Assembly (NCBI GenBank): GCA_963728565.1
Contig: CAVSLC010000010.1
Location: 160,001 to 224,000 of the forward strand
Source of the DNA: an uncultured delta proteobacterium
GTDB taxonomy: Bacteria > Desulfobacterota > Binatia > UBA9968
DNA length: 64,000 nt
Direction: 5' to 3'
Part shown: positions 4,392 through 61,385 of the stretch, one piece after another
Layout: the number at the start of each line of letters is the position of its first letter
Position numbering within the stretch: position 1 is the first letter of the stretch
The notes under the pieces: model-generated
Told to the model about the DNA's origin: nothing
The model's database searches: none
Seen by the model: the letters and a program-made list of their open reading frames with translations, nothing else
Made by a program: the position numbers and the translations under genes

Positions 4392-4461
4392 GAGCCGATG
4401 CCGCAAAAAAACTGAAGCGCGCAACCGGTAAAACAGCCTGATCGCGGTTCGACGTGTTCTG

Positions 4462-4561
4462 GCAGGCTGCTGAAAAAAGCCTCTTGCAGGCTGCTCAAAA
4501 AGATCCAGAGGCGAGACGATTGAGCGGCAACGAAGCATATGGGTCTTTTTCAGCAGTCTGC
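4462..4561. repeat. MITE-like repeat family A, copy 1
   Basis: Ends GCAGGCTGCTGAAAAA / TTTTTCAGCAGTCTGC(TAG) are inverted repeats; shares CCTCTTGCAGGCTGCTCAAAAAGATCCAGA and GATTGAGCGGCAACGAAGC with 58765-58914. Confidence 0.8.
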
Positions 4562-4752
4562 TAGGATGTGCTTCTTTTCTGGATCGATTCATTCTGTAGT
4601 CGTCACTCAGGCGAAAGTCAAAATTATCCGAACAAGCAAGGCAGGTGCAGAAGGAGCGTCAAGCATGAACATTTGCCAATCATGAACTCACAGGGTGCTC
4701 GAACAGAGCACCGCGGGTCAACGGATTCATGCGGCTTGAAGTTCAATGCGCA

Positions 4753-8200: not shown

Positions 8201-8214
8201 TATCTCGCCAAGGT

Positions 8215-8961: not shown

Positions 8962-9115
8962 TTGATTTAGGGTAAAGGTCGGATTGCCGTGAAGCAAGGT
9001 CGGATTTGTTATTCTCGCTATTGGGACACGAAGTCGATCCAGCTATGGGTAACCGGCTGTCAATGATGCCGCGCGCATCATCCAACCATCAACTCTCGGG
9101 TGCAGCGAAATCTGC

Positions 9116-9130
9116 TGGCGCAGGCTTTGC
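9116..9130 (+). promoter_or_regulatory. sigma54 (-24/-12) promoter upstream of the LigD polymerase gene
   Basis: TGGCGC-AGGCT-TTGC(T), exact GG-N10-GC spacing, 15 bp before ATG 9146. Confidence 0.65.
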
Positions 9131-9145
9131 TTTTTGACTACGTTG

Positions 9146-10174
9146 ATGCCGCAAAAACCAACTTCCGAAACGGCAACGAGAGATCGTCGTCGGCCAACGC
9201 ATCGTGCAAAATCGCGGACGGCGGGCGCGCCTGACTCCAGCCCGTTGCGCATTCCCAAAGACCGGGACAGCGTCGCAATCGATTGGGAAGGCAAAAATGT
9301 TACGCTAACCAATTTGCGTAAAGTATTTTGGCCTGATCTGGGGATAACCAAAGGCGATCTGCTTCAGTTCTATGCCGATGTCGCGCCGGTATTGTTGCCC
9401 CACCTGGTAAATCGCGCAATGGTTATGAAGCGCTATCCTCATGGCATCGCCGGTGAATTCTTTTTCATGAAACGCGCGCCGTCGCCGCGGCCAGAGTGGA
9501 TCGAGACCTGCGCGATTGAGCACTCGTCCGGGAACGTTATCGATTTTCCGGTGATTCGGGATCTCGCCTCGCTCCTATGGGTTATCAATCTTGGATGCAT
9601 CGATTTAAATCCTTGGTATGCTCGCTGCGATGATGTCGATCGGCCGGATTATTTACATTTCGACCTTGATCCGGTGAAAGGTGCAACCTGGGAGCAGATG
9701 TTGGAGACCGCCTCGGTAGTGCATGACGCCTTGGAGAGTCTTAAGTTACCCTCCCTGATCAAAACTACCGGCTCGAAGGGCTTTCATATCTACGTGCCGA
9801 TCATGCGCGGGCCAACCCAGAAGCAGGTCTGGGCGGTCGCTAAAAAGTTTGCCCTCACCTTGGCAGCTCTGCGTCCAGATTTAATGACCGCCGAATACCG
9901 AATCGCCAAGAGGCCGAACAAGCGAGTTCTGGTTGATTACAATCAAAACGCCTGGGGCCAAACCTTATCCTCGATTTACTCGGTAAGACCGCAGCCTAAA
10001 GCAACCGTTTCGACTCCGATTACCTGGAAGGAGCTGAAGAAGGGACCGGGTATCGAAGACTTCCACATCGGCAATGTTCGCGAGCGGATTCACAAGCTAG
10101 GTGATTTGTGGGCGCCTTTGCTGGCGCAAACCGGACGCGCCAGATTGGAAACCCTGTATGACGCTATCGATTAG
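9146..10174 (+). CDS. ligD: Stand-alone LigD polymerase/primase (AEP, Prim-PolC-like) domain
   Basis: LTNLRKVFWP, TKGDLLQFY, KRYPHGI..FFMK, FDLDP, KTTGSKGFHI, LVDYNQN, YSVRP, VSTPITW; no ligase or phosphoesterase domain. Confidence 0.92.
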   Translation: MPQKPTSETATRDRRRPTHRAKSRTAGAPDSSPLRIPKDRDSVAIDWEGKNVTLTNLRKVFWPDLGITKGDLLQFYADVAPVLLPHLVNRAMVMKRYPHGIAGEFFFMKRAPSPRPEWIETCAIEHSSGNVIDFPVIRDLASLLWVINLGCIDLNPWYARCDDVDRPDYLHFDLDPVKGATWEQMLETASVVHDALESLKLPSLIKTTGSKGFHIYVPIMRGPTQKQVWAVAKKFALTLAALRPDLMTAEYRIAKRPNKRVLVDYNQNAWGQTLSSIYSVRPQPKATVSTPITWKELKKGPGIEDFHIGNVRERIHKLGDLWAPLLAQTGRARLETLYDAID

Positions 10175-10220
10175 CCCGTCGTTTCCGCCCATGGAAGCCT
10201 CGTGCCTGCCCAAGATCCCT
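10158..10220 (+). pseudogene. 5' remnant of an ATP-dependent DNA ligase (LigC-like)
   Basis: MTLSISPSFPPMEA resembles LigC N-termini (xLPxxPPxxPMEA) and overlaps the polymerase stop; the KxDG motif does not follow. Confidence 0.5.
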
Positions 10221-10299
10221 CGGCCGCATGTAAAAACGCTGCGCCGTGTCTTGATGAGCGCGCTTCAGCGACGCAGTATGAATTCAGGAGGTTAAAAGC

Positions 10300-10491
10300 A
10301 TGAAATACGAAGTCAAAGAATCAAAGGAGCGATCCGGGGAATTCCTTGCGATTGCGGTCAATGAAGCCAGTCACAACGAAATATTTTCCGCGCTTTTCTG
10401 CGGCCCGGACGCAAAGCAACGAGCCGAGGAGTATGCCGCCTGGAAAAATAGCCAGCTGGAAGTGACCGGCGAACAGCTGTTGCAGCGATAA
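10300..10491 (+). CDS. Small hypothetical protein
   Basis: AGGAGG RBS; FCGPDAKQRAEEYAAWKN. Confidence 0.65.
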   Translation: MKYEVKESKERSGEFLAIAVNEASHNEIFSALFCGPDAKQRAEEYAAWKNSQLEVTGEQLLQR

Positions 10492-10493
10492 TT

Positions 10494-10988
10494 GTGCGAG
10501 GTCCGTCAAAAGCAAAACAGCCGGCGCCGTCTTCGGATGCGGCGCCGCGCCTTTTTGCCCGCTTTCTCGCTGAGCTTCTCGATCAGCGTTTCACGATTCC
10601 CGGGACCTCGATCCGGATTGGGCTCGATCCGCTTATCGGGCTAATACCCGGCATCGGCGACACCCTCGCCAATCTCGCCGGGTCAGCGATTCTTTTCATC
10701 GGCGCGAAGTTCAATCTGCCGAAAGTAGTCTTATTACGTATGGCTTTGAATATAGCATTGAATACGCTGATCGGCGCTATTCCGTTCGTTGGAGATCTCT
10801 TTTCGATTTGGTTCCGCAGCAACGTCAGAAATGTTCAATTGTTGGAGCGCTACGCAAGCCAGCACCGTCAAAGAGCGGCGGCCGCGGATTGGCTTTTCGT
10901 TGTGGCGGTCATAGGCGGGCTGGTGTTGTTGTTGATCGCTGTGCTTGTCGGACTGGGTTGGTTATTGCAGCAGCTGGTGCGCACTTAG
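10494..10988 (+). CDS. DUF4112 membrane protein
   Basis: LLDQRFTIPGTSIRIGLDPLIGLIPGIGD; GAIPFVGDLFSIWFRSNVRN. Confidence 0.9.
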   Translation: MRGPSKAKQPAPSSDAAPRLFARFLAELLDQRFTIPGTSIRIGLDPLIGLIPGIGDTLANLAGSAILFIGAKFNLPKVVLLRMALNIALNTLIGAIPFVGDLFSIWFRSNVRNVQLLERYASQHRQRAAAADWLFVVAVIGGLVLLLIAVLVGLGWLLQQLVRT

Positions 10989-11122
10989 CTGCGGTGATGA
11001 CGATCTTCTCCTTGCGACCAGGGCACACAACGTATGTCTCGGTTTTGAGAAAGAGTCCCACAGCTGAAACAGCGAAACTCTACGCAGGCTTTGAAGAGCT
11101 TGGTAGCCTCTCGGTTTTCGCG

Positions 11123-11137
11123 TGGCACACCAGTTGC
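11123..11137 (+). promoter_or_regulatory. sigma54 promoter upstream of the BON lipoprotein
   Basis: TGGCAC-ACCAG-TTGC perfect consensus, 37 bp before ATG. Confidence 0.8.
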
Positions 11138-11174
11138 GCAGAGTAGCTGTTGAACGAACTTTACTGGAGGCGCC

Positions 11175-11576
11175 ATGAAATTATTGCTGATTGTTTTCTT
11201 TTCAGGTTTTGTAATGCTCGGATGTTCTAAAGAGCAAGATCGGGCTGATCAAACCGGATCAAAATCTTCGTCATCCGTTGCGGCTGATAATACCGCTAAG
11301 AACGAGCGGGATCGCAACGATGCAACGAAAACCGCGGGAGATCAATCGGAGAATGAAGCCGACCGAAAGATCACGCAGGAAGTACGGAAATCCATTGTCG
11401 ATGACGACAAGCTTTCCACCAACGCCCAGAACGTGAAGATCATCACCAACGACGGCCAGGTCACCTTGCGTGGTCCGGTGAAGACCGCAGAGGAGAAAAA
11501 AGCGATCGAGAGCAAGGCGAAACAAGTAGCCGGGGTGAAGAACGTCGATAATCAGCTTGAGATTGCCAGCAACTAA
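11175..11576 (+). CDS. BON-domain (OsmY-like) lipoprotein
   Basis: Lipobox MLGC; DRKITQEVRKSIV, NVKIITNDGQVTLRGPV, VAGVKNVDNQL. Confidence 0.9.
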   Translation: MKLLLIVFFSGFVMLGCSKEQDRADQTGSKSSSSVAADNTAKNERDRNDATKTAGDQSENEADRKITQEVRKSIVDDDKLSTNAQNVKIITNDGQVTLRGPVKTAEEKKAIESKAKQVAGVKNVDNQLEIASN

Positions 11577-11605
11577 TTCTAGTAAGATTTATCTTCAAAG
11601 AACGG

Positions 11606-11634
11606 AGAGGGGCGATGGCACTATCGCCCCTCTT
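11606..11634 (+). terminator. Rho-independent terminator-like hairpin
   Basis: AGAGGGGCGAT...ATCGCCCCTCT stem after the BON gene. Confidence 0.6.
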
Positions 11635-11847
11635 GCGTTGACGGTCAGTTAACCTTCAGTAGGGCCGCCTCTTCTCCGTATCAAGATTCTCTCCATTGAA
11701 GCCCGGCCACCCGCGAAGCGGGTATCGAATCAAGGTGTTCTGGCTTGAAGCCGCCGGATTCAACGTCCTTCCAGCTGACTTGAAACGTTGTCTTGCTAAT
11801 TCGGGTCCTCGCCTCGGTGCCGTGTCGCATGCATTGACTCCCTGCCA

Positions 11848-12426
11848 ATGACGGGTAAAAAGGGATGTGGCGCGGAGAAGTGCGCTATCAATCTTACAAG
11901 TCGAATAGAAACCATCCGACAGCATCCGTTCCTGCTCGGGTTATTTTTCGCTCTCGGAGTGCTCGTCGGCGCGGGTCTTATGAGCTGGCGCCCCACCGCT
12001 CCGGCAGGGCCCATGGGCTATCGTGATCTATCCAATGATGATCTGTCTGAAAAAGGAGTAACGATGGCGCGCGCCTTACGCGCTCTCGCCAGAGAAATGA
12101 TGGCTACGGATGAAAAGCTTCGAAGACGCTGCGATGGAGAAAACGAGTTGGCTAAAACTGAACAGGCCAAAAACCAACTCCGGCAATCGTGCAATGATGA
12201 ATCGCTCAAAGCCACGCAAAATTTTCTTGGCCAATACGAGGACAGATATAAAGCCGAGGTGCTGATACTGCGCGAAGAGATGCTGCGCAGACTACCGGAG
12301 CTCAGACAAAAAGCCGCGCCACCCGTTCTAGCGAGTCACCCTACCAATGCTTTAGGCTTAGGCGAAGTCGCCTCCACGCTGGAGGTGCTCGCTAAGCTGC
12401 TACCCAAAATGCCGTCTAAAGCTTAA
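11848..12426 (+). CDS. Hypothetical membrane-anchored protein
   Basis: 192-aa ORF, one TM segment (FLLGLFFALGVLVGAGLM) then a helical region; start uncertain. Confidence 0.55.
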   Translation: MTGKKGCGAEKCAINLTSRIETIRQHPFLLGLFFALGVLVGAGLMSWRPTAPAGPMGYRDLSNDDLSEKGVTMARALRALAREMMATDEKLRRRCDGENELAKTEQAKNQLRQSCNDESLKATQNFLGQYEDRYKAEVLILREEMLRRLPELRQKAAPPVLASHPTNALGLGEVASTLEVLAKLLPKMPSKA

Positions 12427-12498
12427 TCCTAGTCGAACCCTATTGCCCCGTCAGAGCGCGGCGGTTACTCTGTATGGAAATCTGGAGCAGTCCTTCCA

Positions 12499-14211
12499 AT
12501 GCAGGATAGGTTTTATATAGCCGGACAATTGAGGCAGATCGGTCGGTTTCTCAGCGTCATGGGCGAGAACCCATTCAAAATAAGAGCCTATGAACGGGCG
12601 GCGCGGGCGTTGGAAAACGCTGCCGGCGACTTCGATGCGCGCGTCAAAGAGGGACGTTTAACCGAGATCGATGGGATCGGCAAGGCTTTGGCAGCCGTCA
12701 TCGAAGAAATCTACCACACCGGTGAGAGCGCTCTGTTGCAGCAGCTAAGCGAGCAGCTGCCTACCGGCGCCGTCGACCTCAACCAAGTTCCCGGGCTAAC
12801 TCTCAAGAAGATCGTCGCGCTTCACGAAAGTTTGGGTATCAAGAGCGTTGATGATCTGAAATCCGCTTGCCAGAAGGGGCTGGTGCGGGCTGTCAAAGGC
12901 TTTGGCCAAAAAGCTGAAGCAAACATTCTCGCGGGCATCGAGAAGTTGCAGCATCGGGAGGACCGCACTCTAATTTCGCAGGCGCTGGCAGATGCCGAGC
13001 CGCTGCTTCAATATTTACGAGCCTGTTCGGAAATTCATCATTGTGAGATTGCCGGCTCGCTGCGACGCCGCAAAGAAACAGTGCGGCGGATCTGTATAGT
13101 TGCCGCGAGCGCAGATCCGAAGACCGTGATCGAACGTTTCCTGCGCTACCCGTTATTCGCCCAATCCGATGAAGCCGGAACGAATCGTTGTGTCGGGCGT
13201 CTCGCCAGAGGTCTGGAGGTCGAGCTCGACATCGCGGCGCCGGCGCAGTACGCCGCGGCTCTGCATTACTCGACCGGCTCAAAGGATCACTATGCAGCTC
13301 TGGTAGATCGCGCGCGATCGCAAGGTCTTATGATGAGCGCGGAAGGTTTGCGCGGGCCCAAGGGTAAAGCGTTGAAGGTTGAAACCGAAGGCGATATTTA
13401 CCGGCGACTGGGACTCGAATACATAGCGCCGGAGCTGCGCGAGAATCAAGGCGAGATCGAGGCTGCTGCCAGCGGCCGCTTGCCGGAGGCCGTCGTCGCC
13501 GAGGACATTCAAGGCATGGTTCACTGCCATACGACCTATTCCGATGGGCAAAACACGGTTGAAGAAATGGCCCGAGCCGCCGAAGCCTTGGGCATGCGGT
13601 ACATTACTTTCACCGATCATTCGCCAACCGCGTCCTACGCGGGCGGAGTCAAGATCGATCGCTTGCGGGCGCAGTGGGAAGAAATCGATCGAGTTCAAGA
13701 GCGGGTGCGGATCAAGTTGTTAAAAGGAACCGAATCGGACATTCTCGAAGATGGCTTGCTCGATTATCCGGACTACATTCTGGAAAAGTTCGATGTCATC
13801 ATCGCCAGCATCCACACACGGCATAAAATGAACGCCGATCAGATGACCGCTCGTTTGTTGCGCGCGCTGAAACTGCCGCTATTTAAGATTTGGGGACATC
13901 CACTCGGCCGCTTGATTGAGTCGCGCCCGCCGTTTGAATGTCATATGGATGAAGTGCTGGATGCGGTTGCCGCTTCCCGCGCGGCGATAGAAGTTAACGG
14001 CGACCCGCGCCGACTGGATCTCGAGCCGCGCTGGATTCGAGCTGCGCGGCAGCGTGGAATCAGATTCGTCGTATCCACAGATGCGCATTCGCTCAAAAAT
14101 CTAGAGAACCTACCATACGGCGTGGCGATGGCGCGCCGGGGCTGGTTGGCGCGCGGTGATATCTTGAATACCTTGCCGGTTGACGAGTTTATGGATGCGG
14201 TCCGGCCGTGA
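12499..14211 (+). CDS. polX: DNA polymerase X/PHP protein, non-canonical polymerase site
   Basis: GENPFKIRAY, HhH IDGIGK, GSLRRRKET, YSTGSKDH, PELREN; PHP motifs HCHTTYSDG, TDHS, GHP, STDAH. Confidence 0.93.
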   Translation: MQDRFYIAGQLRQIGRFLSVMGENPFKIRAYERAARALENAAGDFDARVKEGRLTEIDGIGKALAAVIEEIYHTGESALLQQLSEQLPTGAVDLNQVPGLTLKKIVALHESLGIKSVDDLKSACQKGLVRAVKGFGQKAEANILAGIEKLQHREDRTLISQALADAEPLLQYLRACSEIHHCEIAGSLRRRKETVRRICIVAASADPKTVIERFLRYPLFAQSDEAGTNRCVGRLARGLEVELDIAAPAQYAAALHYSTGSKDHYAALVDRARSQGLMMSAEGLRGPKGKALKVETEGDIYRRLGLEYIAPELRENQGEIEAAASGRLPEAVVAEDIQGMVHCHTTYSDGQNTVEEMARAAEALGMRYITFTDHSPTASYAGGVKIDRLRAQWEEIDRVQERVRIKLLKGTESDILEDGLLDYPDYILEKFDVIIASIHTRHKMNADQMTARLLRALKLPLFKIWGHPLGRLIESRPPFECHMDEVLDAVAASRAAIEVNGDPRRLDLEPRWIRAARQRGIRFVVSTDAHSLKNLENLPYGVAMARRGWLARGDILNTLPVDEFMDAVRP

Positions 14212-29398: not shown

Positions 29399-29803
29399 AT
29401 GAGTGAAGCAAAGGAAAAGATCGAAAAGTCCGATGAAGAGTGGCGCAAAGAGCTGTCGCCGGAGCAGTACGAGGTGTGCCGCCAGAAAGGGACCGAACGG
29501 GCTTTCACCGGAAAATACTGGGACTGTCACGACCAGGGAACTTATCATTGTGCCTGTTGCGGCAACGAACTATTCAGCTCCGACAGCAAATTCGATTCCG
29601 GCACCGGGTGGCCGAGTTTTTACCGGCCGATTGCCGAAGACAAGGTCGAAACCGAAAGCGACAACAGCTTTCTTATGCGCCGCACGGAAGTGCTCTGCGG
29701 TCGATGCAATGCTCATCTAGGCCATGTTTTTGATGACGGGCCTGCGCCGACTCACTTGCGCTATTGCATCAATTCGGCCTCATTGAAGTTGGAAAAGAAG
29801 TAG
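29399..29803 (+). CDS. msrB: Peptide methionine-(R)-sulfoxide reductase
   Basis: [35 protein letters not shown]. Confidence 0.97.
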
Positions 29804-33970: not shown

Positions 33971-34945
33971 ATGAAACCAATCCTAATTAGCCTTGTCCTT
34001 CTGATGTGGACGCATGCTCTTGGAGCCGCGGATAGGATCCGGATCGGCTACAGTTCGATCAGCGGCGCCTACATCCCCATCTGGGTTGCGCATGATGCCG
34101 GCTACTTTGCCAAAGAAGGCCTGGAAGATCAGATCGTGCTGATTCCCAGCGGCACTCAGCTGGCGCAAGTAACCGTCGCCGGCGAAATCGATGTCGGCTC
34201 GATGAACGGCAGCTCTGCAATGGCCGCGGCGCTGCAGGGCGCCGATTTAAAGATCATTGGGAATTCCGGCAATAAGATGATCTTTTCTCTCTATGTCAGG
34301 CCTGAGATCCAAACCATCGAAGCGTTGAAGGGGAAGAAGATCGGCATCACCCGTTTTGGTTCTGCGCCCGACATTTCGATCCGTTACGCGCTGAGAAAAT
34401 ACAACATCAATGCAGAGCGAGATCTCACGTTGATCCAGCTCGGCTTTATGGCGACTGTTGCAGCCGGGCTGCAAGGTGGATCGATCGAAGGCGGAGTGGT
34501 TTCGCCGCCAACCCAATTCGCAGTCGAAAAGGCCGGCTTCAAAGAATTGATCAATATTACGGATATGGACTTTGCTTTCCCCAATCCTTCTCTGGTGGCG
34601 GTCGGATCCGTCATTAAAAGCAGGCCCGCTGTCATCGACCGCTTCATGCGCGCCTATGCGCGCGGCGTTCAGCGCGCCCGCAGCGATAAAGAGTTGACGT
34701 ATAAGTCGATGTCCAAGTACACCAAAATCCAGGACCAGACGGTTTTACACAAGGCTTACGAGCTCTACATGGGCAAGGTGCTGGAGAAGGCGCCCTACAT
34801 CAACATGACCGGGCTGCAGAACGCGCTCGATGATCTGGCGAAAACAGTGCCTGCCGCCAAAACCGTTAAGCCTGAGCAATTTGTCGATCGACGCTTCCTC
34901 GATAATTTAGATCGAAGTGGTCTCATGAAAGAGCTCTATCCATGA
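33971..34945 (+). CDS. ABC transporter substrate-binding protein (NMT1/SsuA family)
   Basis: Signal peptide; GYFAKEGL, LKGKKIGITRFGS, FVDRRFL. Confidence 0.88.
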   Translation: MKPILISLVLLMWTHALGAADRIRIGYSSISGAYIPIWVAHDAGYFAKEGLEDQIVLIPSGTQLAQVTVAGEIDVGSMNGSSAMAAALQGADLKIIGNSGNKMIFSLYVRPEIQTIEALKGKKIGITRFGSAPDISIRYALRKYNINAERDLTLIQLGFMATVAAGLQGGSIEGGVVSPPTQFAVEKAGFKELINITDMDFAFPNPSLVAVGSVIKSRPAVIDRFMRAYARGVQRARSDKELTYKSMSKYTKIQDQTVLHKAYELYMGKVLEKAPYINMTGLQNALDDLAKTVPAAKTVKPEQFVDRRFLDNLDRSGLMKELYP

Positions 34946-40259: not shown

Positions 40260-41288
40260 TCACTGCACCTTAAACACCTGCCGATATTCGTCGTAGTATT
40301 TCCTGTAGTCCGGGGCCAAGCTGATATCGCTCGCCATCAGATTGATTCCTTCCACAAGCGTCGGCGGCTCGGCCTTGACATCCGACCGCACCGGTACCCG
40401 GGAGGTTTTGACCAATAATTCCTGCCCCTCCTTGGAGAGCAAAAAATCGACGAAAAGGCGGGCGGCACTCGGATGGGGCGCATGAGCGGCAACGCCAACG
40501 ACATAGTGGTACGCGATCACAGGATTTGCCCTTACCCATTCTATCGGCGCGCCGCTCTTCTTCATGACCTCCATCCTGGGAGTATACAATACGGTGCCGA
40601 GCTTGAACTCGCCGGCAGCCACGAGCTGCGCCATCAAGGAGTGGCCCGCGCGAAAAGTAAGATCCTGAGTAGCCAGTCGCCGCATATACTGCAGACCCTT
40701 GTCGCGCCCCATAAATTTCAACATATTGGCAAACCATTCCGTCTCTTCGCGATCCATGACCATTTGTCCCTTCCACTTCGGATCCAAGAGATCGGACCAA
40801 TCCTTCGGGGCTTCGGCGCGTGGAACCAGCTTCGTATTGTATCCTATGGTTGCGGGATTCATGTAGAAACTCGTCCAGTGTCCCTCCCGGTCCTTGAAAT
40901 CGTCCCGATAGAACTTCGAATGAGGCGAGGCATACTTCGCGAACAAGCCTCTCTCCACAAGCACGTTGCCCTCGAAAGACCGGATATTGAAAACATCAGC
41001 CTCGCGTCTTCCCGCCCGCGCCTCCGTGAGAACTTTTTGCAGCAGACTGTCCGATCCGGCACGAAACTGGGTTATCTTCAGGAACGGATACTTGCTTTCA
41101 AATACTTTTCTAATGGTCTCCGATTCACTTGCGGTAATCGACCCATAAAACACCACCGACCCTTCCTTCTTTGCTCCCTCAACGAGCTTGTCATGCCTTT
41201 CCCTTTCAGCCTCCGCAGCCGCAGCATGGCCAATCGACGGCAAAATAAGCAGAACCGAGGCGATCAAGTAAATGTAAAACGCTTTCAT
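40260..41288 (-). CDS. ABC extracellular solute-binding protein (Fe3+/thiamine-like, SBP_bac_6)
   Basis: GAKKEGSVVFY, YNTKLV, DLLDPKWKG, APHPSAARLFVDFLLS.EGQ. Confidence 0.88.
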   Translation of the reverse strand: MKAFYIYLIASVLLILPSIGHAAAAEAERERHDKLVEGAKKEGSVVFYGSITASESETIRKVFESKYPFLKITQFRAGSDSLLQKVLTEARAGRREADVFNIRSFEGNVLVERGLFAKYASPHSKFYRDDFKDREGHWTSFYMNPATIGYNTKLVPRAEAPKDWSDLLDPKWKGQMVMDREETEWFANMLKFMGRDKGLQYMRRLATQDLTFRAGHSLMAQLVAAGEFKLGTVLYTPRMEVMKKSGAPIEWVRANPVIAYHYVVGVAAHAPHPSAARLFVDFLLSKEGQELLVKTSRVPVRSDVKAEPPTLVEGINLMASDISLAPDYRKYYDEYRQVFKVQ

Positions 41289-41635
41289 TTTTTGCACCCC
41301 TCTTGTCGAATGGAGAGAGCCATTACAAAGTAACTTTGCGCGGAGTCTTAGAGATATTTGAGGGTGCACCCGACTGTCAACACAGAAAGCGGTTGGGGAT
41401 CCATTCTGCGCGTCTCTAGTTGGAATACATCAAAATAAGACCTGGCCCTCCATGCTCGCCTCCGCAGGTATTTTCCGATGCTCTCAACCGAAAATTAACT
41501 TGACGTATGTCAATTCTATATTAGTGTGACCGCTAGAAACTGCATTGCTGCTCATCGCCACTGTAGGCCCTGTTCTATGGAAGCAGCACAACAATGAAGC
41601 ACTATGTTGCCGAGGACATGGAAGAGAGGTCAAAT

Positions 41636-42028
41636 ATGCTGAAGAGGAAAATCATGACGGTGGTTCTGCTCTCTCTCATTGCCGGCACGCTGATGGCTTA
41701 GGAAGCTAAGGTCACGTCTCTCATGTCGAAGGTTATGACGGACGTTTCCGGCAAGGAAGGCCTGCTGATAACAGTAGAGTATCCGCCCGCCGGGTCGGAC
41801 CCTATCCATCGTCACAATGCGCATGCATTTGTATACGTGCTGGAAGGCTCCCTCGTGATGCAGGTCGAGGGCGGAAAACAAGTGACGCTCACACCGGGAC
41901 AGACCTTCTAGGAAGACTCCGACGATGTTCATATCGTTGGACGGAACGCGAGCAAAACCAGGCCGGCAAAATTCCTTGTGTTCCTGGTCAAGGACAAGGG
42001 CGCTCCAGTGCTCGTGCCAGTGAAGTGA
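41636..42028 (+). pseudogene. Secreted cupin-2 protein with two in-frame TAG codons
   Basis: Signal peptide, YPPAGSDPIHRHNAHAFVYVLEGS, VTLTPGQTF*E..DVH..GRNAS..PAKFLVF; TAG at 41699 and 41909. Confidence 0.8.
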
Positions 42029-42241
42029 CTGGGGAGCGTCTCCCGCGTGCTCCGGATTATCGTCGACGGAGCACTGGAAGGACACAGGAGAAACGAGCCG
42101 TTACGATTCAACAAATATCGGCAACGTTCCCACACGGATGCGCCTAAAACGTATTGCGAATCCCTTTGCTTCTTAACCAATCTTGACCGTGGCTGTTGCA
42201 AGAGTATAAGACACGCACAAGACCACGCGAGGAGAAGATCT

Positions 42242-43312
42242 ATGACATTAGCAATAACAAATGAAGAAGCTGTAAATCTTTTGTCGATGAAGGACTGCCT
42301 TTCTGCTCTAGAGACCGCCTATAAAGAACTAGCGGCAGGCATCGCTGTAAACCGTCCTCGATCTGACATACACACGAATACACCTACTCCCCAACAAACA
42401 TTTCGGTTCAAAAGCATGGAGGGAGTTGTCCCAGGACTTGGGGTGACAGCTCTTCGCGTTAATTCAGACATTGTCAGCTGGCCCGTGGTGGATGGAAAGC
42501 AACGCCAAATAAAAGTGATGGCGGCGCCTGGAGAAACTCAGTGTGCCTTCATCATGCTCTTCAAGAACGATACCGGCGAACTTCTGGCGATCATTCACGA
42601 CAGCTACGTGCAGCGAATGCGAGTCGGAGCCGCAAATGGATTGGCAGCGAAGTATCTCGCGCGGAAGGATGCCACATCCATAGGCTTGATTGGATCTGGA
42701 TGGCAAGCTGGCGCCCAGCTCATGGCCATATGCGCGGTACGGCCGATTCGGTTAATAAAAGTCTACAGCTCTAATGCGGAACATCGCTCAAACTTTGCAA
42801 AAGAAATGACTGAGACCCTCGGCATCCAGGTGCAGGCCGTTAGGTCAGGTGCCGAAGCTATGGAAGGCTCGGAAATCATGGCTGCCGCCACCAGTTCTAT
42901 GGAACCCGTTCTGTTTGGTGAATGGTTGAAGCCGGGGGTTCATGTAAGTGGAATCAAGCGTTTTGAAATCGATGACGATGTATTTAAGCGCAGTGATCTC
43001 ATTGTGGTTCATGTCAAAGAAGGCAAAGGCCCTAACTATCTTTCCAGCAATGCACCTACAGACGACATTCCATACATGAAGGGTGATCCGTTTGACATCC
43101 AGGAAATGCATCGCATGCCGGAACTAGCAGATGTTATTGCGGGGAAACATCCTGGCCGAGAGAACAACAATCAAATCACATTTTTTATGAATAACATCGG
43201 CATCGGGATTCAATTTACTGCGTCGGCCCACGTGGTTTATCAACGAGCATTGGAGTGTGGAATCGGAAGAGAAATTCCATCAGACATTTTTCTGCAAACT
43301 TGGCATTCCTAA
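42242..43312 (+). CDS. Ornithine cyclodeaminase/mu-crystallin family protein
   Basis: TGELLAII, RMRVGA, IGLIGSGWQA, AATSS..P, WLKPGVHV, GIGIQF. Confidence 0.9.
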   Translation: MTLAITNEEAVNLLSMKDCLSALETAYKELAAGIAVNRPRSDIHTNTPTPQQTFRFKSMEGVVPGLGVTALRVNSDIVSWPVVDGKQRQIKVMAAPGETQCAFIMLFKNDTGELLAIIHDSYVQRMRVGAANGLAAKYLARKDATSIGLIGSGWQAGAQLMAICAVRPIRLIKVYSSNAEHRSNFAKEMTETLGIQVQAVRSGAEAMEGSEIMAAATSSMEPVLFGEWLKPGVHVSGIKRFEIDDDVFKRSDLIVVHVKEGKGPNYLSSNAPTDDIPYMKGDPFDIQEMHRMPELADVIAGKHPGRENNNQITFFMNNIGIGIQFTASAHVVYQRALECGIGREIPSDIFLQTWHS

Positions 43313-43328
43313 TTTAGATAGGAGATAT

Positions 43329-44345
43329 ATGAATCGCAGCGCAGAAAGGAAAATCTTGCAGAGTGTCACCCTGATTCTGATATGCTTTTTCACCAGTATT
43401 GCCCATGCTCAATCGCTCGAGAAGCTTATTATCGCCTATTCGGCAATTAGTCCGTTCCAAGTCATCGTGAAGGTCGCCGAAGACTCAGGGATATTCAACA
43501 AAAACGGCTTGGATGCAAAACTTGTTTTCATCGAAGGTGGTTCTAGAGGAGCCCAGGCCCTTTTGGCCGGCGAGGTGCCTTTCGTTGTTGCAGATGGATC
43601 AAGTGCCGTAACGAGCCGATTAGCTGGCGCAGATACAGTTATTATACTCGGTCTCGTAAATACGTTCCCGTACACATTGATCAGCGCACCACAAATTAAA
43701 GACGTAGCTCAGCTCAGAGGCAAAAAGGTTGCGATCAGTCGGTTTGGTAGTGCCACTGATGTGGCGACACGAGTTGCGCTGCTAAAGGTTGGACTTAATT
43801 CGGACCGTGATGTGACTATATTACAAATCGGCGCCCAAAACGCGCGCTTTGCCGCCCTGAAAGCGGGCAGTGTCGACGCGGCCGTGATCACGCCGCCATT
43901 CACGTTGACTGCGAGAAAGCTCGGCTTTCATAGTTTGTTGAATATGGTTGATTTGAATCTGCCTACCTCGCAGTCGGCCGTTCTAACGACCGATTCCGTT
44001 ATTCGGCGAAAACCGGAACTGACGTCAAAAGTTGTCAAATCCTTCGTCGATGCGATCCACTTCTATAGAACCCAGAAAAAAGACTCTATTAAAATCCTTA
44101 AAAACTTCCTACGTTACACGAGTGACGAGGAAGTGGAAGAAGCGTACAACGAAGCCGGACTTAAACTCGTACCTGTCAAGCCGTATCCCAGCCTAGAGGG
44201 GCTGGAAAGCATCCTGCAGACCGTGGAAGAAAAGAACCCGAAAGCAAAAGGCCGTAATCCGGAAGAGTTTGTGAACGTATCCATTTTGGAAAAACTAGAT
44301 AAGAGCGGCTATATAGACCGACTCTATTCGAAAGACTCTCGGTGA
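43329..44345 (+). CDS. ABC transporter substrate-binding protein (NMT1/SsuA family)
   Basis: Signal peptide AHA/Q; GIFNKNGLD, LRGKKVAISRFGS. Confidence 0.88.
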   Translation: MNRSAERKILQSVTLILICFFTSIAHAQSLEKLIIAYSAISPFQVIVKVAEDSGIFNKNGLDAKLVFIEGGSRGAQALLAGEVPFVVADGSSAVTSRLAGADTVIILGLVNTFPYTLISAPQIKDVAQLRGKKVAISRFGSATDVATRVALLKVGLNSDRDVTILQIGAQNARFAALKAGSVDAAVITPPFTLTARKLGFHSLLNMVDLNLPTSQSAVLTTDSVIRRKPELTSKVVKSFVDAIHFYRTQKKDSIKILKNFLRYTSDEEVEEAYNEAGLKLVPVKPYPSLEGLESILQTVEEKNPKAKGRNPEEFVNVSILEKLDKSGYIDRLYSKDSR

Positions 44346-44612
44346 CCTCTTTCTAAAGTCCTCTCTGTTCTAATCAACAGGCAGCCCAGAACTCCGGGCC
44401 GCGCGCTGGCAGGCAGATTAAGAGGCACAGACGCTCCGGTGAGAATTTTTTCTGATTCCCTTTTTCAATCATTGGGGAATGTGTGATCACCTGATTGACG
44501 CGCCCCTGTTTTCAAGACGTCGGTGTCGGCCTGTCGGTCCGCATCAGTCACCCATCAGGTTCAAGGCTTTGGGAGCTGTCCTCTATGGACAGCGATCTCC
44601 CACCCCTGGCAC

Positions 44613-44870
44613 GTACTTGATTGCATAGTGACCTGCAACCACGTTCACCTTTTGATTAGAGTCACCGGTCCAAAGTTTATCGCCGATAGCACGCAACTGA
44701 TTGCGGGCCGCAGTGGTCAAGAATACAATCAGCGCAAAGGACGCCCCGGTGCATTCTGGGAAGACCGCTATAATGCCACGACCATCGAGGCTAACGAGCA
44801 CCTTCAACGTTGTCTTGTTTACATCGATCTGAACATGGTTCGTGCGGGCGCCGTAAGCCATCCTGCGAAG
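44613..44870 (+). mobile_element. Remnant of a REP-associated tyrosine (RAYT/IS200-like Y1) transposase
   Basis: VTCNHVHLLI (HUH), YNQRKGRPGAFWEDRY, YIDLNMVRAG..HP; N- and C-termini missing. Confidence 0.75.
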
Positions 44871-44927
44871 CGGGAGGGAAAGTGTCAGGCCTTCCCTTTC
44901 CCTCCCCTTCCAGGTTGTTCGAGTCGA

Positions 44928-46076
44928 TCAACGAGGCTGTAGCCATTTGGTCCCGAGCAAGCTCCGGAAAATGCGGGACGCCCCGTTCTGCACAGAAACC
45001 GCATATCCCAACTCGACAATCTCAGATTCTGTAAATTCCGCTTTCAGATCGTCGAAAACGGCATCGCTAACCTGCCCTGTCCCCACTAGCCCTTCGGTGT
45101 AGCGCAAGGCAGCCTGCTCGCGCCGCGAGAAAACGGTCAGATCCTGCGCGCGCAAGGCGGTTCGTTCACGGGAGCCAATTCCTGCTGCAGTCAGTGAGGT
45201 ACTAGCTTCCGGCGCCCACGCTGGGCATTGTACATATTCAGCCAACAGGACACGCTGAAGCTGTTTGATACGGTTCTCCACAATCCCACCCTCCACGACG
45301 GCCTCATAGAGCGCTCCCCATGTGCCAGGTAAGATGGGGTGGGGGGAGAGAAACTTCAACCAGGCGGGTGGGGGCGACCGGCGCTGCATGGCTCGGTCGA
45401 GTAAATCTGGAATCGACAGCATTGGCGGATGTGGAATAGGAGGGCGCGGTGTTTCCGATTTTACTGCATCCGCGTAAGCAAGACGGACGGGCAATGCTTC
45501 GAGCACTACCTTTCCGTCTCTCTTGTAGCCTTCCGCGCCCCAAGACGTGAGCATGTTGGGACCACCAAACTGCCAGGCGCAGAGTGTGACGACCTCGATC
45601 ATTTCCTGTTCTGAAAAGACCCGGAGCAAATCTTCGTAATCGCTTTGGTTCAAGTCAGGCCATTCGTAGCATAGCCTTTTGCCAAACCGCAGAGCCGCTT
45701 GCTCCCGTGGGGTGACTCCTTCAGCATCGGCGTCACCAGCCTCGGTCAACTGCTTCTCTGTCAACCCTTCGTGCCTCGCCGAGGCAGAGCGATGGGTGGC
45801 TCAGTAGTCACAGTTGCGCCATGAAGCGATCTTTACCCGTAGCAGTTCTTTCAGGCGATGCTCGACCAGGCCTTCGTGGAAGATAAACCACATGAACCGC
45901 CGACCGGCTCGCTGCGTATCGCGATTGTGCGCATCGAGCGACAGCGACGTCGGTGGTGGGGTTCCCTCGATGTATGATGTACGGAAGTGGGCCTCGACTT
46001 CCGGATCGTTCCAACTCTCCACGACTTCACCCGGGACCAAGCTGAGTCGTGGCCTCGGAATGTCAACCATATTCAT
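44928..46076 (-). CDS. Two-domain AhpD/carboxymuconolactone-decarboxylase-like selenoprotein (CxxU), 382 aa with UGA read-through
   Basis: LKELLRVKIASWRNCDY-TGA(45801-45803)-ATHRSASARHEGLTEKQL stays in frame with the 44928-45764 ORF; GGAGGGA RBS at the 5' start. Confidence 0.8.
45764..45800 (-). promoter_or_regulatory. Bacterial SECIS-like hairpin immediately 3' of the UGA
   Basis: UGA-GCC-ACCC-A-UCG-CUC-UGCCUC-GGC-GAGGCA-CGA-A-GGGU; G-initiated apical loop 20 nt from the UGA. Confidence 0.65.
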
Positions 46077-46658
46077 TTTGTCCCTCCCTTCTCTTAAAAT
46101 ATGTCAGGCAAAAATCTCTTCAGAGGGCCTACTACGTGAACAAGGAATCAGAGGAGATGGATGTTTTCAAGGCCACAGTAAATAAGACGTCGAATAGGCA
46201 ACAGGCAACAGTAAGAAGAGAACTCGTTCAACGGTTCAGTCGTTCAAACGTTCAACGTCGGATTTATCCGAACACGGCCTTCAGTTTTGCCGGCAAAAGT
46301 GAGGCTCAAGGCATCAAGACACATTCGTTTGGAATGAAAACATGAAATCGCGGGCCGGGTCGGTCGGACCACGTTATGTCTAAGTGATCTCAGCGTTTTC
46401 ATCCCACAATAGTGTATTTCCCGCCTTAAAGCCTCACTTACGGCCGTAAAACTGGCGCTGTAAGGTTCACTCTCCTCTCCAAGCGATACGTGCCGCTGTC
46501 CTCCAACACTCTGCACCCATGGCTTTTGATCCGAGTTCGCTCTTCACCTTATGAATGAAGATAGAGTCGCCAACCGCAATCGCCTCCGACCACCGTTCGT
46601 CTCATCCCCCAATCTCGCGGCTCTGCGCTTCACTTACCCACTGAATGAATCTGGAAGG

Positions 46659-46856
46659 ACGACGCTCGACCGGGTGGATGCTTCAATGCTCGTGCAAGCC
46701 AGCGATCGGACGATTGGGTTGAGCGCACTGCTTATGGCCGAGCAGTACCGCCGGCCGAATTTCCTTCGTTTGGCGAACGCGCTGTCGGCGTTGTATCCTA
46801 AGTAAAGTGAAGAGGAGCGGCTGCTGGACGCAATGCTAGTAGCGGTGCCGAGGTGA
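46659..46856 (+). pseudogene. C-terminal remnant of a DUF1156-type adenine DNA methylase
   Basis: TTLDRVDASML...FLRLANALSALYPK*SEEERLLDAMLVAVPR, recalled as a DUF1156 C-terminus; internal TAA at 46803. Confidence 0.55.
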
Positions 46857-46875
46857 GTAGCGGATAACTGATCTT

Positions 46876-47100
46876 ATGGCCGGACGACAGCTTAGAGGCA
46901 TAGGTGGTGAGGAAGCGGTAAAGGCATTCGTGAAGGTGGGCGGAGTGCGGCGGGCTGGCAAAGGCGATCACGTCAACATCAAGATGCCGAACGGTCAGCT
47001 CGTCACCGTACCCTTGCATCGAGATCTCAAAATCGGCTTGCTGAAGGCTGCTATCCGCAAGGCAGGATTAACCGAGAAAGAGTTTTTGGATTTGCTTTAG
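46876..47100 (+). CDS. hicA: HicA-family mRNA interferase toxin
   Basis: GKGDH catalytic His, VTVPLH.DLKIGLL..IRKAGLT..EF. Confidence 0.9.
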   Translation: MAGRQLRGIGGEEAVKAFVKVGGVRRAGKGDHVNIKMPNGQLVTVPLHRDLKIGLLKAAIRKAGLTEKEFLDLL

Positions 47101-47112
47101 AAGGAGTATTCC

Positions 47113-47334
47113 ATGCAATACACAGTTGTCGTGCACAGTGCAGAGGAGGGCGGATATTGGGTGGATGTACCGTCTCTACCCGGCTGTTTCAGTCAGGGTG
47201 AAACAATCGACGAGGCGATGAACAACGCCAGGGAAGCGATTGAGCTTCACATCCAGGGGTTAAAAGACGATGGACAGGAAGTTCCTAAAGAAGAAGGTTT
47301 AGTGATCGGTCGAGTGGACGTTAAAGCCGCTTAA
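47113..47334 (+). CDS. hicB: HicB-family antitoxin
   Basis: EEGGYWVDVPSLPGCFSQGETIDEAMNNAREAI. Confidence 0.93.
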   Translation: MQYTVVVHSAEEGGYWVDVPSLPGCFSQGETIDEAMNNAREAIELHIQGLKDDGQEVPKEEGLVIGRVDVKAA

Positions 47335-59092: not shown

Positions 59093-60266
59093 TTACGTCG
59101 TGTAGTAGGCGTTTTCTTTGATGTATCCCTCGGTCAGATCGCAACCCCACACACGCGCTGCAGCTTTGCCGAGGCCAAGCTCGACCGAGATCGTGACTTC
59201 GGATTGACCAAGATAGTCGCGCAATCCTTGGAGATCGCAATCCACGGGCGAGCCTTTCTTGAAAACCCTGGTGTCGCCGAAGCGGATTGTAACCTTGGCA
59301 GGATCGATGGCAGTGTCAAAACTTTTGCCAATCGCCATGATCACACGGCCCCAGTTGGGATCGCATCCATAGACAGCCGTTTTGACCAATGGCGAGTTGA
59401 CGATGGACTTCGCTACCAATTTTGCTTGAGCGCCGCTCTTGCGAGCCGGCGACATCGACAATGATAAGTTTGGTTGCGCCTTCACCGTTCCGGGCAATCT
59501 CCCGGGTGAGAAATTCGCAAACATGCGATAGGGCGTCTTCAAAATGCCGCAGATTGACTTTGCCGGCCAATCCGTTTGCCATCAGCACGACCGTATCGCT
59601 GGTGCTGGTGTCGGTATCGATGCTCATGCAATTGAAAGTTCGGTCGACGATGCGGCGCAGCATGGGCCGCATCGTCGATCTCGGCAGCTCCGCGTCGGTC
59701 ATAAGATAGACGAGCATGGTCGCCATATTCGGCTCGATCATGCCGGCGCCTTTGGCGATTCCGGCAATCACTGCCGAACCGACCTGGCAGAAAACGTACT
59801 TCGGATACATATCGGTGGTCATGATGGCTTCGGCGGCCAATTTGAGATTGTTAGGCTTGAGTTCTTTGCCAATGCCTTTCAATCCGGCGCGAATTTTGTC
59901 CATCGGCAGGGGCCGCCCAATGACCCCGGTCGAAAAAGGCAGGACGTCATAGGGACTTATGCCGAGCTCTTTGCCGACGATCCGGCAGGTTTCGATTGCA
60001 TTGGCGACTCCCTGCTTCCCCATGGCCACGTTGGCGTTCTTGCTGTTAATCACCAGCGCCTGGACGAAGCCGGTGGCAATATGCTTCCTGCCGACAATCA
60101 CCGGCGCGCCAGGGAAGCGATTGCGCGTAAACATCGCTGCGGCGCGAGCGCGGACGGTGGAATAAATCACAGTGAGATCCAGCGTATCGTCTTTAATGCC
60201 GACGTTCTTTGCCAAAGAGAGAAATCCTTGGGGATGATTAGATTCTGCGGGCGCGACCTGTTGCAT
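59093..60266 (-). CDS. argJ: Ornithine acetyltransferase/N-acetylglutamate synthase, frameshift near 59445
   Basis: NSKNAN, STGVIG, AIMTTD, KGAGMIEPNMATML, DTSTSD, GEGATK; second frame SPLVKTA..DPNWGR, WGCDLT..YI..NA.Y. Confidence 0.9.
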
Positions 60267-60334
60267 GTGTCGGCGATGACTCCTGAAATGGTGCTTAATG
60301 GATCGAGCGCAAAGACGAGCGTGTCGCTCGCTCT

Positions 60335-61385
60335 TTACTGCACGAAAAGCTTCTTTATCTGTTCGACCACCTCTGGCGGTTGGGTCATGACTTCTTTCGC
60401 TGTTGATTGCAGGTGTTCGCCGCGCAAATGCGTGATCTCGATGCGCAGCTTCTTCGCCTCGGCGAGCAGCTCCGGATCTTTGGCGGCCTTTTCATGGGCG
60501 GCGCGCAGAATGGCGACACGGTCCGCGGGCGTTGCCGGTGGAGCCATCAACGATCGCGCCCATTCGCCTCCCTGGAGCATCGCCTCGGCCACCCGGCGCT
60601 TGGTTGCCGGTGTTTTGTATTCATCCATCAGCTCGTAGACGGTCGGCGCATCGGCAATTCGGCTGTCGCGTTTGCGACCGCTCTGGGCAAGGAATCTGAC
60701 ATACTTGTCCTTGTACCAGGTGCCAAATGGCTCGCGGCCGAAATAGGTGGCGATGGTCAATCCCATACAGGAAACCTCGCCTCTTTCCAGGGCTATCGCA
60801 ATTTCGCTGCTGCCGGGGTAGCCGGTAACATGAGTTACCTTGGCGCCGATGGTGTCCTCCAGCACCTTGGACATCACATAGTCCGAGCTGCCCACGCCGG
60901 TGGAGCCGCATTTCGGTTGTTCTTTGGCTTTGATGATGTCGGCTATCGATTTATAGGGCGCGTCGGCGCGACCGAACAGCATCATGTCATCGTTTTCGAG
61001 AGAGCCGATCCATTGAAATTTTGCCAGATCGAACTGGACTTCTTTTTGTCCCGAGAGCTGGCTCAAGTAAACGTTATTGTGCGGCGCCAGCAAGGTCAGA
61101 CCGTCCGGCTTCGCCACACCCCAGACGTAATTCGCGGCGGTGACGGAGCCTGCGCCGGGCATGTTTTGCACCAGCACCTCCGGATTGCCCGGTATGTACT
61201 TGCCGATGAAGCGAGCGAGCATGCGCGCCGCGCGGTCGTAGCCACCGCCGCTGCTCAGTCCGACGATGATGCGTATTTGTTTTCCTTTGTAATACGGCTC
61301 CTGCGCCGAACCCGAGCCGCGGTCCGGTGAGCATTAACAGAGAGGCGAGAACAAAGATTATAATCACCACACTACGACGCTTCAT
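60335..61385 (-). CDS. Tripartite tricarboxylate transporter (Bug/TctC) substrate-binding protein, frameshift near 61310
   Basis: Signal peptide then, shifted, AQEPYYKGKQIRIIVG..GGGYD; VQNMPGAGS, KPDGLT, GYPGS. Confidence 0.85.

Follow-up and report, generated by a model that had tools for sequence, protein, structure and literature searches.

An in-frame TGA interrupts a single coding sequence

Two open reading frames (ORFs) lie in the same frame on the minus strand of the window, the whole 64-kb stretch of DNA analysed here. The upstream ORF (46076..45801, -) encodes 91 residues whose C-terminal end, WRNCDY, is followed by TGA; the next 36 nt (45800..45765, -) are 12 sense codons that lead in frame into an ORF of 278 residues (45764..44928, -). 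With the TGA decoded, the gene (44928..46076, -) runs from ATG 46076 to a final stop TGA at 44930-44928 and encodes 382 residues (91+1+12+278). The initial annotation had proposed such a joined protein, and its coordinates and frame check out; the features that it described are all present on this strand. A Shine-Dalgarno-like (ribosome-binding-site-like) run, GGGAGGG (46082..46088, -), lies 5 nt 5' of the ATG, and a scan of 44600-46600 for promoters and terminators gave nothing above shuffled expectation. The internal TGA (45803-45801), the proposed Sec codon, closes the redox motif TGT GAC TAC TGA (45801..45812, -), read as C89-D-Y-U92.

The coding sequence is continuous across this TGA. A Pfam CMD match (PF02627; score 35.6 bits, cut-off 23) covers residues 53-131 and crosses the TGA, and the same domain is matched by 7/7 full-length family members. 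Homology to the aligned relatives extends both 5' and 3' of the TGA, and the full-length homologues run through it without a break. A reassigned genetic code was rejected, because TGA is an ordinary stop in the window, ending 26 of its 66 long ORFs. Elsewhere, a search for frame pairs joined by TGA returned 32 in the window; all except the 382-residue gene are adjacent genes or off-frame ORFs.

The TGA column is occupied by Cys in most full-length relatives

We compared the DNA of the window with that of three relatives (L001, L002 and L003), all from Chloroflexota MAGs. At the proposed Sec column, the window shares the codon TGA with L001 and L002, and L003 has TGC. In full-length alignment, the window protein is 60 % identical to L001, 46 % to L002, 41 % to L003 and 54 % to the metagenomic protein P0007. 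The residue carried by homologues at this column had been named in the initial annotation as a refutation test: it is Cys in seven of the eight full-length relatives (P0015, P0019, P0030, P0032, P0033, P0035 and P0037, all CxxC carriers) and Trp only in P0007. Only 20 representatives reach E <= 1e-30 among 1.84 billion clusters.

Other relatives are fragments. C-terminal pieces make up 17 of the 21 matches in one homologue search. Among 11 clusters of N-terminal fragments, 10 break off precisely at C-x-Y, and the four N-terminal fragments obtained through the representative search all stop at C-x-x; P0041 is common to both N-terminal lists, leaving 13 distinct clusters that stop right after C-x-x. 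Such breakage is the pattern that gene callers would leave on splitting a gene at a stop. The L001 relative is likewise divided in its public annotation (P0180 and P0014), and the splitting extends to JGI pieces that bear the name 'alkylhydroperoxidase family enzyme'.

The same splits could be read at face value, as two separate genes or a nonsense-broken pseudogene giving two products, one of 91 residues and one of 278 residues started at TTG 45764, whose expression would be unconnected. Standard ORF calling yields exactly these two ORFs, and the L001 relative is cut identically, yet a single CMD domain spans the break and the Cys homologues are single chains. TTG 45764 is also without a usably spaced ribosome-binding site, since GAAGGG abuts it directly. 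Random nonsense mutation is unlikely because three DNA sequences share the stop at one identical column, as do 13 fragment clusters. We regard this explanation as extremely unlikely.

A conserved SECIS-type hairpin follows the TGA

The minimum free energy (MFE) fold of the window sequence here (-16.7 kcal/mol for a 48-nt stretch) is a stem-loop (45764..45797, -) with a lower stem, internal loops and an upper hairpin. It is the very structure described in the initial annotation (ACCC/GGGU, UCG/CGA and UGCCUC-GGC-GAGGCA), with a G-initiated loop 20 nt downstream of the TGA. Its core, UGCCUC-GGC-GAGGCA (45772..45786, -), is a 6-bp upper stem capped by the apical loop GGC (45780-45778), the start of which lies 20 nt after the UGA. 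According to a published model of bacterial SECIS (bSECIS) elements (PMC13188914), the loop measures 3-9 nt with a G within its first two positions, the upper stem has 4-16 bp, the distance from the UGA is 16-37 nt, and the MFE does not exceed -7.5 kcal/mol. The window hairpin agrees with all of these constraints (loop GGC, stem of 6-7 bp, spacing of 20 nt, MFE of -16.7 kcal/mol), bearing out its assignment as SECIS-type.

The upper hairpin is conserved in both TGA-containing relatives. Its 15 nt are identical in the window and L002, and L001 differs only by a compensated change of a U-A to a C-G pair, although third-position identity across the gene is only 44 %. The L002 hairpin contains that gene's sole AGG (1 of 32 Arg codons) and sole TCT (1 of 17 Ser codons). 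The hairpin is thus present at the same spacing in all three TGA forms and absent from L003, the single TGC form read as DNA, in a sample of three hairpin-bearing DNA sequences with one compensatory pair. Conservation is limited to this upper part, the lower stem being kept in neither L001 nor L002.

Taken alone, the hairpin is weak evidence, because hairpins with bSECIS geometry and at least six Watson-Crick pairs follow 62 of the 2046 TGA trinucleotides in the window (~3 %). Folding z-scores against shuffled sequences are unremarkable for the window (-2.41 for 76 nt and -1.14 for 48 nt), as are two further values (-0.75 and -1.21). The recurrence of TGA column, hairpin and spacing in orthologues of 60 % and 46 % identity, both from genomes of much higher G+C, indicates more than chance. 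The core has no exact copy in the window beyond the expected site, six window sites match it with at most two mismatches (3.9 expected), and L001 and L002 each contain one core site. A scan of the whole window at Rfam gathering thresholds gave no match; the mir-204 hit from a permissive scan of 45600-45900 (E 2.2) is a chance match only.

An active and a degenerate AhpD-like repeat are fused in one chain

The first CMD/AhpD-like repeat spans residues ~22-185 (45522..46013, -), as delimited by Pfam, PDB-profile and hhalign matches, those to PDB profiles covering positions 36-166. It contains E77, C89 and U92, of which E77 and C89 are invariant in the family alignment. The family pattern E-x11-C-x-x-C/U is in register with the AhpD-family chains 2ijc, 7xw1, 2oyo and 6k40, and U92 falls on the second Cys of their CxxC motif, the position to which the initial annotation had assigned the TGA. 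In M. tuberculosis AhpD, a conserved His after the CxxC relays protons. H95 is kept in the window protein, L001 and P0007, and is replaced by Asn, Ser or Leu in the other family members.

The limits of the second repeat (residues ~215-375; 44952..45434, -) come from hhalign and from PDB profiles, with matches to 2o4d and 2gmy at positions 238-367. Each half of the protein matches the PDB protein PA0269 (as 2ijc and 2o4d). Alignment of the N-terminal with the C-terminal half by hhalign (probability 99.1 %, E 7e-19, 148 columns) places C89 on C284 and U92 on the invariant W287. In place of CxxU this repeat has C284-P-A-W287 (45227-45216, -), the lone CPAW noted previously, and with CxxU confined to the first repeat, the fused active/degenerate architecture proposed at the outset holds. 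The predicted structure has a pLDDT of 83 and a pTM of 0.87.

The segment that joins the repeats (residues ~168-200; 45477..45575, -) is the most conserved, family-specific part of the alignment. It reads A167-W-Q-F-G-G-P ... S-W-G-A-E-G-Y-K ... L-P-V-R-L-A in invariant or nearly invariant columns and coincides with the stretch of highest nucleotide identity in the gene.

The two Trp residues at the U92 column and its paralogous position bear on how the UGA is read. Because P0007 has Trp at the former and the second repeat an invariant Trp at the latter, Trp is structurally tolerable at the Sec column. Near-cognate suppression could in that case place Trp, or some other standard amino acid, at the UGA. 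TGG is one base from TGA, and P0007 still keeps the hairpin-encoded peptide S-A-S-A-R. Set against this, the column corresponds to the second CxxC Cys of AhpD and holds Cys, never in a Trp-like context, in 7/8 full-length relatives; the Trp of P0007 may itself be an artefact of a pipeline that reads TGA as Trp. Suppression would leave the conserved bSECIS-type hairpin without a role and the use of TGA instead of TGG for Trp unexplained across lineages of 46-60 % identity, and TGA terminates 26/66 ORFs in the window. We consider such suppression very improbable. The reading that we favour, and consider likely, is that the two ORFs form one 382-residue gene with the internal TGA as a Sec codon in an AhpD-type active site.

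Relation to known selenoproteins and AhpD-fold proteins

AhpD-like (COG2128/YciW type) and CMD-domain CxxU selenoproteins are described from the Sargasso Sea and GOS metagenomes in the available portions of two reports (PMC1088965, PMC2398784), in keeping with the statement of the initial annotation that such proteins are known in bacteria; a COG2128 CxxU selenoprotein is also listed in a review. Chloroflexota/Dehalococcoidia are counted among the selenoprotein-richest bacteria in the accessible part of another study (PMC13326102). As far as the available descriptions go, the published proteins and the window protein share the fold family, Sec at the second CxxC position, Cys homologues and, just after the UGA, a bacterial SECIS whose small loop contains a G. 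The window protein differs in being an active plus degenerate tandem of 382 residues with a family-specific linker (AWQFGGP...SWGAEGYK...LPVRLAY). A tandem AhpD-like selenoprotein is not described in the literature consulted on AhpD-like, CMD and YciW selenoproteins.

The window protein scores far below the cut-off of every NCBIfam (seleno)protein model tried. The best-scoring named families are NF053654 ('YciW-related (seleno)protein'; 64.7 bits, cut-off 310), which each half matches separately, and TIGR01926 ('peroxidase-related enzyme'; 37.4 bits, cut-off 81.8); the GSU3128 family, NF041047, gives 27.3 (cut-off 110). TIGR01926 is also the nearest proxy model for the AhpD-like selenoprotein family of Zhang and Gladyshev (COG2128 proteins with CxxU); the window protein does carry the CxxU motif. 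Both NF053654 and TIGR01926 describe single-domain proteins of ~180 residues, whereas the window protein is a tandem, and it is not a member of either because its scores lie below the curated cut-offs.

Among solved proteins, PA0269/AhpD of P. aeruginosa (2ijc, 2o4d, 7xw1), D. radiodurans AhpD (6k40) and the debrominase Bmp8 (6ohi) share the E-x11-C-x-x-C register and the helical fold. They differ in being single-repeat Cys proteins, 13-27 % identical to the window protein, that assemble from separate subunits. By analogy, they suggest thiol redox chemistry on peroxides, on disulfides or, as with the debrominase, on a carbon-halogen bond. Compared over the whole chain, the predicted model best matches the structure of Sestrin2 (5cuf, 5dj4, 5t0n), although weakly (E 6e-4, TM ~0.5, 10-12 % identity). 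Sestrin2 carries two AhpD-like lobes in its chain and keeps a redox Cys in one lobe only. It is, however, eukaryotic, without Sec and has leucine-sensing functions; the likeness is one of architecture, not membership.

We regard the window gene as a well-supported and previously unannotated probable member of the known AhpD-like CxxU selenoprotein kind, with a tandem active/degenerate architecture. Joining the split ORFs corrects the annotation of this gene and its relatives, and AhpD-like selenoproteins gain a separate, tandem subfamily; knowledge of Sec decoding and of the AhpD family as a whole is unchanged. The active/degenerate pair, together with Sec, Cys and Trp at one column, offers a compact system for asking what advantage Sec has over Cys in an AhpD site.

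Proposed decoding and chemistry

We infer that the hairpin 20 nt after UGA92 recruits SelB with Sec-tRNA(Sec), so that Sec would be inserted and termination avoided. The first repeat keeps the AhpD-type active site, with Glu77 separated by eleven residues from Cys89-x-x-Sec92. The second, its active site lost (Cys284-Pro-Ala-Trp287), most likely plays the structural role of the second subunit of a CMD dimer, and the resulting body would be two-lobed, like that of sestrins. Judged from the family, Sec92 would be the nucleophile that attacks an oxidised or electrophilic substrate; candidates are a protein or small-molecule disulfide or sulfenate and a hydroperoxide, with a halogenated or organosulfur compound as a further possibility. 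Cys89 would then resolve the adduct as a selenenylsulfide, which a cellular thiol system may re-reduce.

Genomic context and the state of the window copy

On one side of the gene is an IS200-like transposase remnant, with a 15-nt overlap at the 3' end of the gene, and on the other a HicA/HicB pair; given this setting, the gene could be a recent arrival. The initial annotation had placed it in an 'accessory catabolic patch', a description that is loosely supported. Its favourable part is that neighbour families, an NMT1-type binding protein and an ornithine cyclodeaminase, recur near the gene and its relatives; the copies are only 20-29 % identical (20-23 % for the NMT1-type proteins, 29 % for the cyclodeaminases). 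When the neighbours of the L001 gene served as tblastn queries, neither L002 nor L003 nor the window showed an orthologue among its own neighbours; because of this and the low identities the argument for a shared operon was dropped.

A tRNA scan of the 64-kb window returned no genes, and hence no tRNA-Sec; the window also has no sel gene, and neither tRNA nor sel genes occur in 54 kb of flanks around L001, L002 and L003. This raises the question of whether the family is truly one of selenoproteins while the window copy is silent or decaying after horizontal transfer into a Sec-incompetent host, where only a 91-residue stub would be made. Its position between the transposase remnant and the HicA/HicB pair, the window without sel genes or tRNA-Sec, a G+C of 54.6 % against 69-73 % in the three MAG relatives, and apparent damage in close relatives (a frameshift in P0186, an internal deletion in P0177) would all fit such a history. 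On the other side, the 382 codons and the hairpin are all intact behind a good ribosome-binding site, metagenomic relatives at 87-97 % identity (P0002-P0006) keep the downstream frame intact, and the absence of sel genes from 64 kb says little about the whole genome. A silent copy is accordingly improbable in our estimate, and under the preferred reading, a functional Sec-decoding gene, the source organism probably uses Sec.

A bolder reading combines several of these observations, and we hold it to be unlikely: the proteins would be pseudo-dimeric selenoenzymes of sestrin-like build, few in number and restricted by lineage, that act on a specific substrate and not as general antioxidants. Sec would be the prevailing, possibly ancestral state, with Cys forms having arisen at least twice, and the conserved inter-repeat segment would form the substrate pocket, suited to one particular small molecule that the cell imports, for example an organosulfur or halogenated compound. 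Such a substrate would fit the recurrence of NMT1-type binding proteins nearby and the precedent of the debrominase Bmp8. The Trp at the W287 site and that of P0007 would record TGA-to-TGG conversions which, if true, mean that Sec can be lost in a way that differs from the usual Sec-to-Cys change. As to the lineage itself, the three relatives found in genomes are all Chloroflexota.

A single gene continues through an internal TGA

The 91-codon and 278-codon ORFs on the minus strand are one gene rather than two. Translation in a single frame runs from ATG 46076, 5 nt after the end of a GGGAGGG run, through an internal TGA to the stop TGA at 44930-44928. The first part of the frame has 91 codons and ends ...W-R-N-C-D-Y immediately before TGA 45803-45801; 12 sense codons then lead into the 278-codon ORF, for which standard calling selects the start TTG 45764. 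With the internal TGA counted as a residue the product has 382 residues and the motif C89-D-Y-U92, and our reading of the frame reproduces all the counts and coordinates of the initial annotation. The Pfam CMD match covers residues 53-131, spanning the TGA (35.6 bits; gathering score 23). The genetic code is standard, because TGA closes 26 of the 66 long ORFs in the window.

Relatives carry TGA or cysteine at the same column

Searching 5.8 billion proteins by word index yielded 21 relatives. Three are full-length (P0007, P0015 and P0019), one (P0022) is a distant CMD protein of 443 residues, and the other 17 are pieces of 213-283 residues that hold solely the sequence following the TGA. In the complementary direction, the 91-residue stub retrieved 11 clusters, ten of which terminate exactly at C-x-Y; one of the ten (P0177) has an internal deletion with 18 residues absent, and the eleventh (P0186) carries a frameshift some 38 residues in. 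Run as a filter-only HMMER query over 1.84 billion representatives, a profile of the seven full-length sequences gave 3167 matches at E <= 1e-3 and 20 at E <= 1e-30; the family proper is therefore small. Twelve sequences were retrieved among the 150 matches listed: all four N-terminal fragments terminate at C-x-x, all four longer chains covering the column (P0032, P0033, P0035 and P0037) have CxxC, three fragments begin directly past the column, and P0040 has no first repeat, being a piece joined to part of a dehydrogenase.

The codon itself was read at three loci, all in Chloroflexota MAGs, confirmed among 88 pattern matches in a scan of genome contigs. By full-length alignment, L001 is 60 % identical to the window protein (motif C-E-Y, then TGA), L002 46 % (C-V-Y, then TGA) and L003 41 % (C-A-Y-C, codon TGC), which makes the column a TGA/Cys pair. 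The homologue alignment proposed at the outset agrees, with Cys in seven of eight full-length relatives and Trp in one (P0007). P0007 keeps the S-A-S-A-R peptide encoded by the hairpin and falls among TGA and split forms in the tree described below; its Trp would therefore be either a TGA rendered as Trp by the translation pipeline or a recent TGA-to-TGG change.

In a maximum-likelihood tree of 32 rows (3 TGA-in-DNA, 21 split fragments, 7 Cys and 1 Trp; P0008, P0014, P0022 and short or fused pieces omitted), six Cys forms make a single, well-supported clade (99/97). P0015 stands apart, so the Cys label takes two changes. TGA and split forms make up the remainder, and the group sister to the Cys clade is among them. 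Since the 'split' label is inferred from where a fragment starts and the root is arbitrary, we do not use the tree to infer which way the states changed. UGA read-through without Sec, and two separate genes or a pseudogene, each receive a small share of the probability.

A SECIS-type hairpin is conserved downstream of the TGA

The minimum free energy fold of the window's 48 nt from the UGA (-16.7 kcal/mol) is the stem-loop drawn in the initial annotation. Its upper part stood up to comparison with relatives, but the lower stem is unconserved, so the element is taken to be the upper hairpin alone. The bacterial SECIS model set out in PMC13188914 specifies a loop of 3-9 nt, an upper stem of 4-16 bp, a G within the first two loop positions, a spacing of 16-37 nt and an MFE no higher than -7.5 kcal/mol. 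With its loop GGC, six Watson-Crick pairs and spacing of 20 nt, the window hairpin satisfies every constraint given there, in line with the geometry originally claimed.

By itself the hairpin is weak evidence, because a comparable one lies downstream of 62 of the 2046 TGA trinucleotides in the window and folding z-scores are -2.41, -1.14, -0.75 and -1.21; comparison with relatives carries the weight. The 15-nt core is the same in the window and L002, and in L001 the sole difference is a compensatory U-A to C-G exchange. Nucleotide identity among the three genes is only 58 %, and third-position identity only 44 %, at G+C contents of 54.6 % (window) and 69 % and 71 % (L001 and L002). The L002 core holds that gene's only AGG (1 of 32 Arg codons) and only TCT (1 of 17 Ser codons). 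The Cys orthologue L003 is without such a hairpin.

The protein is a tandem duplication with the AhpD active-site register

Searched against solved AhpD/CMD proteins, the family profile matches with both halves, the first to 2ijc, 7xw1, 2oyo, 6k40 and the debrominase Bmp8 (6ohi) and the second to 2o4d, 2gmy and 5dik; 2ijc and 2o4d are one Pseudomonas protein, matched by opposite halves. The invariant E77, C89 and the Sec column align on E-x11-C-x-x-C of these structures, which places the TGA, as first proposed, at the second Cys of the AhpD CxxC. Residues 22-185 and 215-375 align to each other with 99.1 % probability over 148 columns (hhalign, E 7e-19), pairing C89 with C284 and U92 with the invariant W287. 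This makes the second repeat the degenerate copy that its CPAW motif (C284-W287, 45227-45216) had suggested, and in three Cys-type relatives C284 is replaced by His or Tyr.

An AlphaFold2 model built on 7 aligned rows reaches a mean pLDDT of 83 and a pTM of 0.87, with weak regions at the hairpin-encoded residues ~95-120 and the linker 196-203. Its best whole-chain matches are Sestrin2 PDB entries (E about 6e-4, TM about 0.5), whereas single CMD proteins cover one lobe each (target-normalised TM 0.58-0.73); the predicted likeness to Sestrin2 is one of architecture only. The best NCBIfam match, NF053654 'YciW-related (seleno)protein', is matched by both halves but scores 64.7 bits where its cut-off is 310, and TIGR01926 and NF041047 likewise score under their cut-offs; this leaves the protein within the CMD superfamily but outside the curated selenoprotein models.

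A likely selenoprotein of a known kind

We consider it likely that this is a genuine selenoprotein gene. The proposed mechanism draws on bacterial Sec decoding and AhpD chemistry. SelB with Sec-tRNA(Sec) would bind the hairpin so that UGA92 is decoded, Sec92 would attack the substrate and Cys89 would resolve the adduct to a selenenylsulfide, while the degenerate repeat may stand in for a partner subunit. That this copy has ended up in a host lacking Sec machinery seems improbable. No tRNA, Rfam family or sel gene was found in the 64-kb window or in the flanks of L001-L003. The P0007 Trp, P0186 frameshift and P0177 deletion may point to loss or decay of Sec in certain lineages.

The gene was previously unannotated, but its kind is already known: CxxU selenoproteins of AhpD-like (COG2128) and CMD-domain type have been published since 2005 (PMC1088965, PMC2398784, PMC1794560 and PMC9312934). 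PMC13326102 lists Dehalococcoidia among the selenoprotein-richest bacteria. No description of a tandem AhpD-like selenoprotein was found in the literature searched. The gene is helpful in annotation and can serve to mark Sec use, and would not surprise specialists.

Genomic context

An IS200-like (Y1 transposase) ORF at 44523-44942 on the plus strand converges on the selenoprotein gene, whose 3' end it overlaps by 15 nt; it is N-terminally truncated, since of the 121 profile positions the match takes in 42-119 alone. A HicA toxin/HicB antitoxin pair (46876-47334, plus strand) lies some 800 nt upstream of the selenoprotein gene, and the interval 46100-46870 between them has no recognised gene. 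On the far side of the transposase remnant, genes for an NMT1-type binding protein and an ornithine cyclodeaminase lie in DNA of 48-51 % G+C. The window holds three NMT1/THI5-type substrate-binding proteins (3369-4592, 33971-34945 and 43257-44345), and the one next to the selenoprotein gene may be there by chance, since the family is abundant near relatives. The NMT1-type and cyclodeaminase families near relatives are 20-29 % identical and not conserved in order, so the context gives no substrate.

The whole stretch 40500-44500, with a solute-binding protein, the ornithine cyclodeaminase and the NMT1-type gene, has 48-51 % G+C against a window mean of 54.6 %, and may be a separately acquired block. 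Elsewhere, methionine sulfoxide reductase B (Pfam 'SelR'; 29399-29803, plus strand) is an uninterrupted ORF without in-frame TGA, preceded in the same frame by a DUF520 gene whose own TGA stop lies between them. ArgJ (ornithine acetyltransferase; 59093-60491, minus strand) is spread over two frames, with profile positions 6-273 from frame 60491-59321 and 264-377 from ORF 59542-59093, pointing to a frameshift or sequencing error near 59.4-59.5 kb. An end-joining repair cluster at 6525-14211 comprises Ku (6525-7382), a LigD primase-polymerase domain (9134-10174) and a PolX/PHP polymerase (12499-14211).
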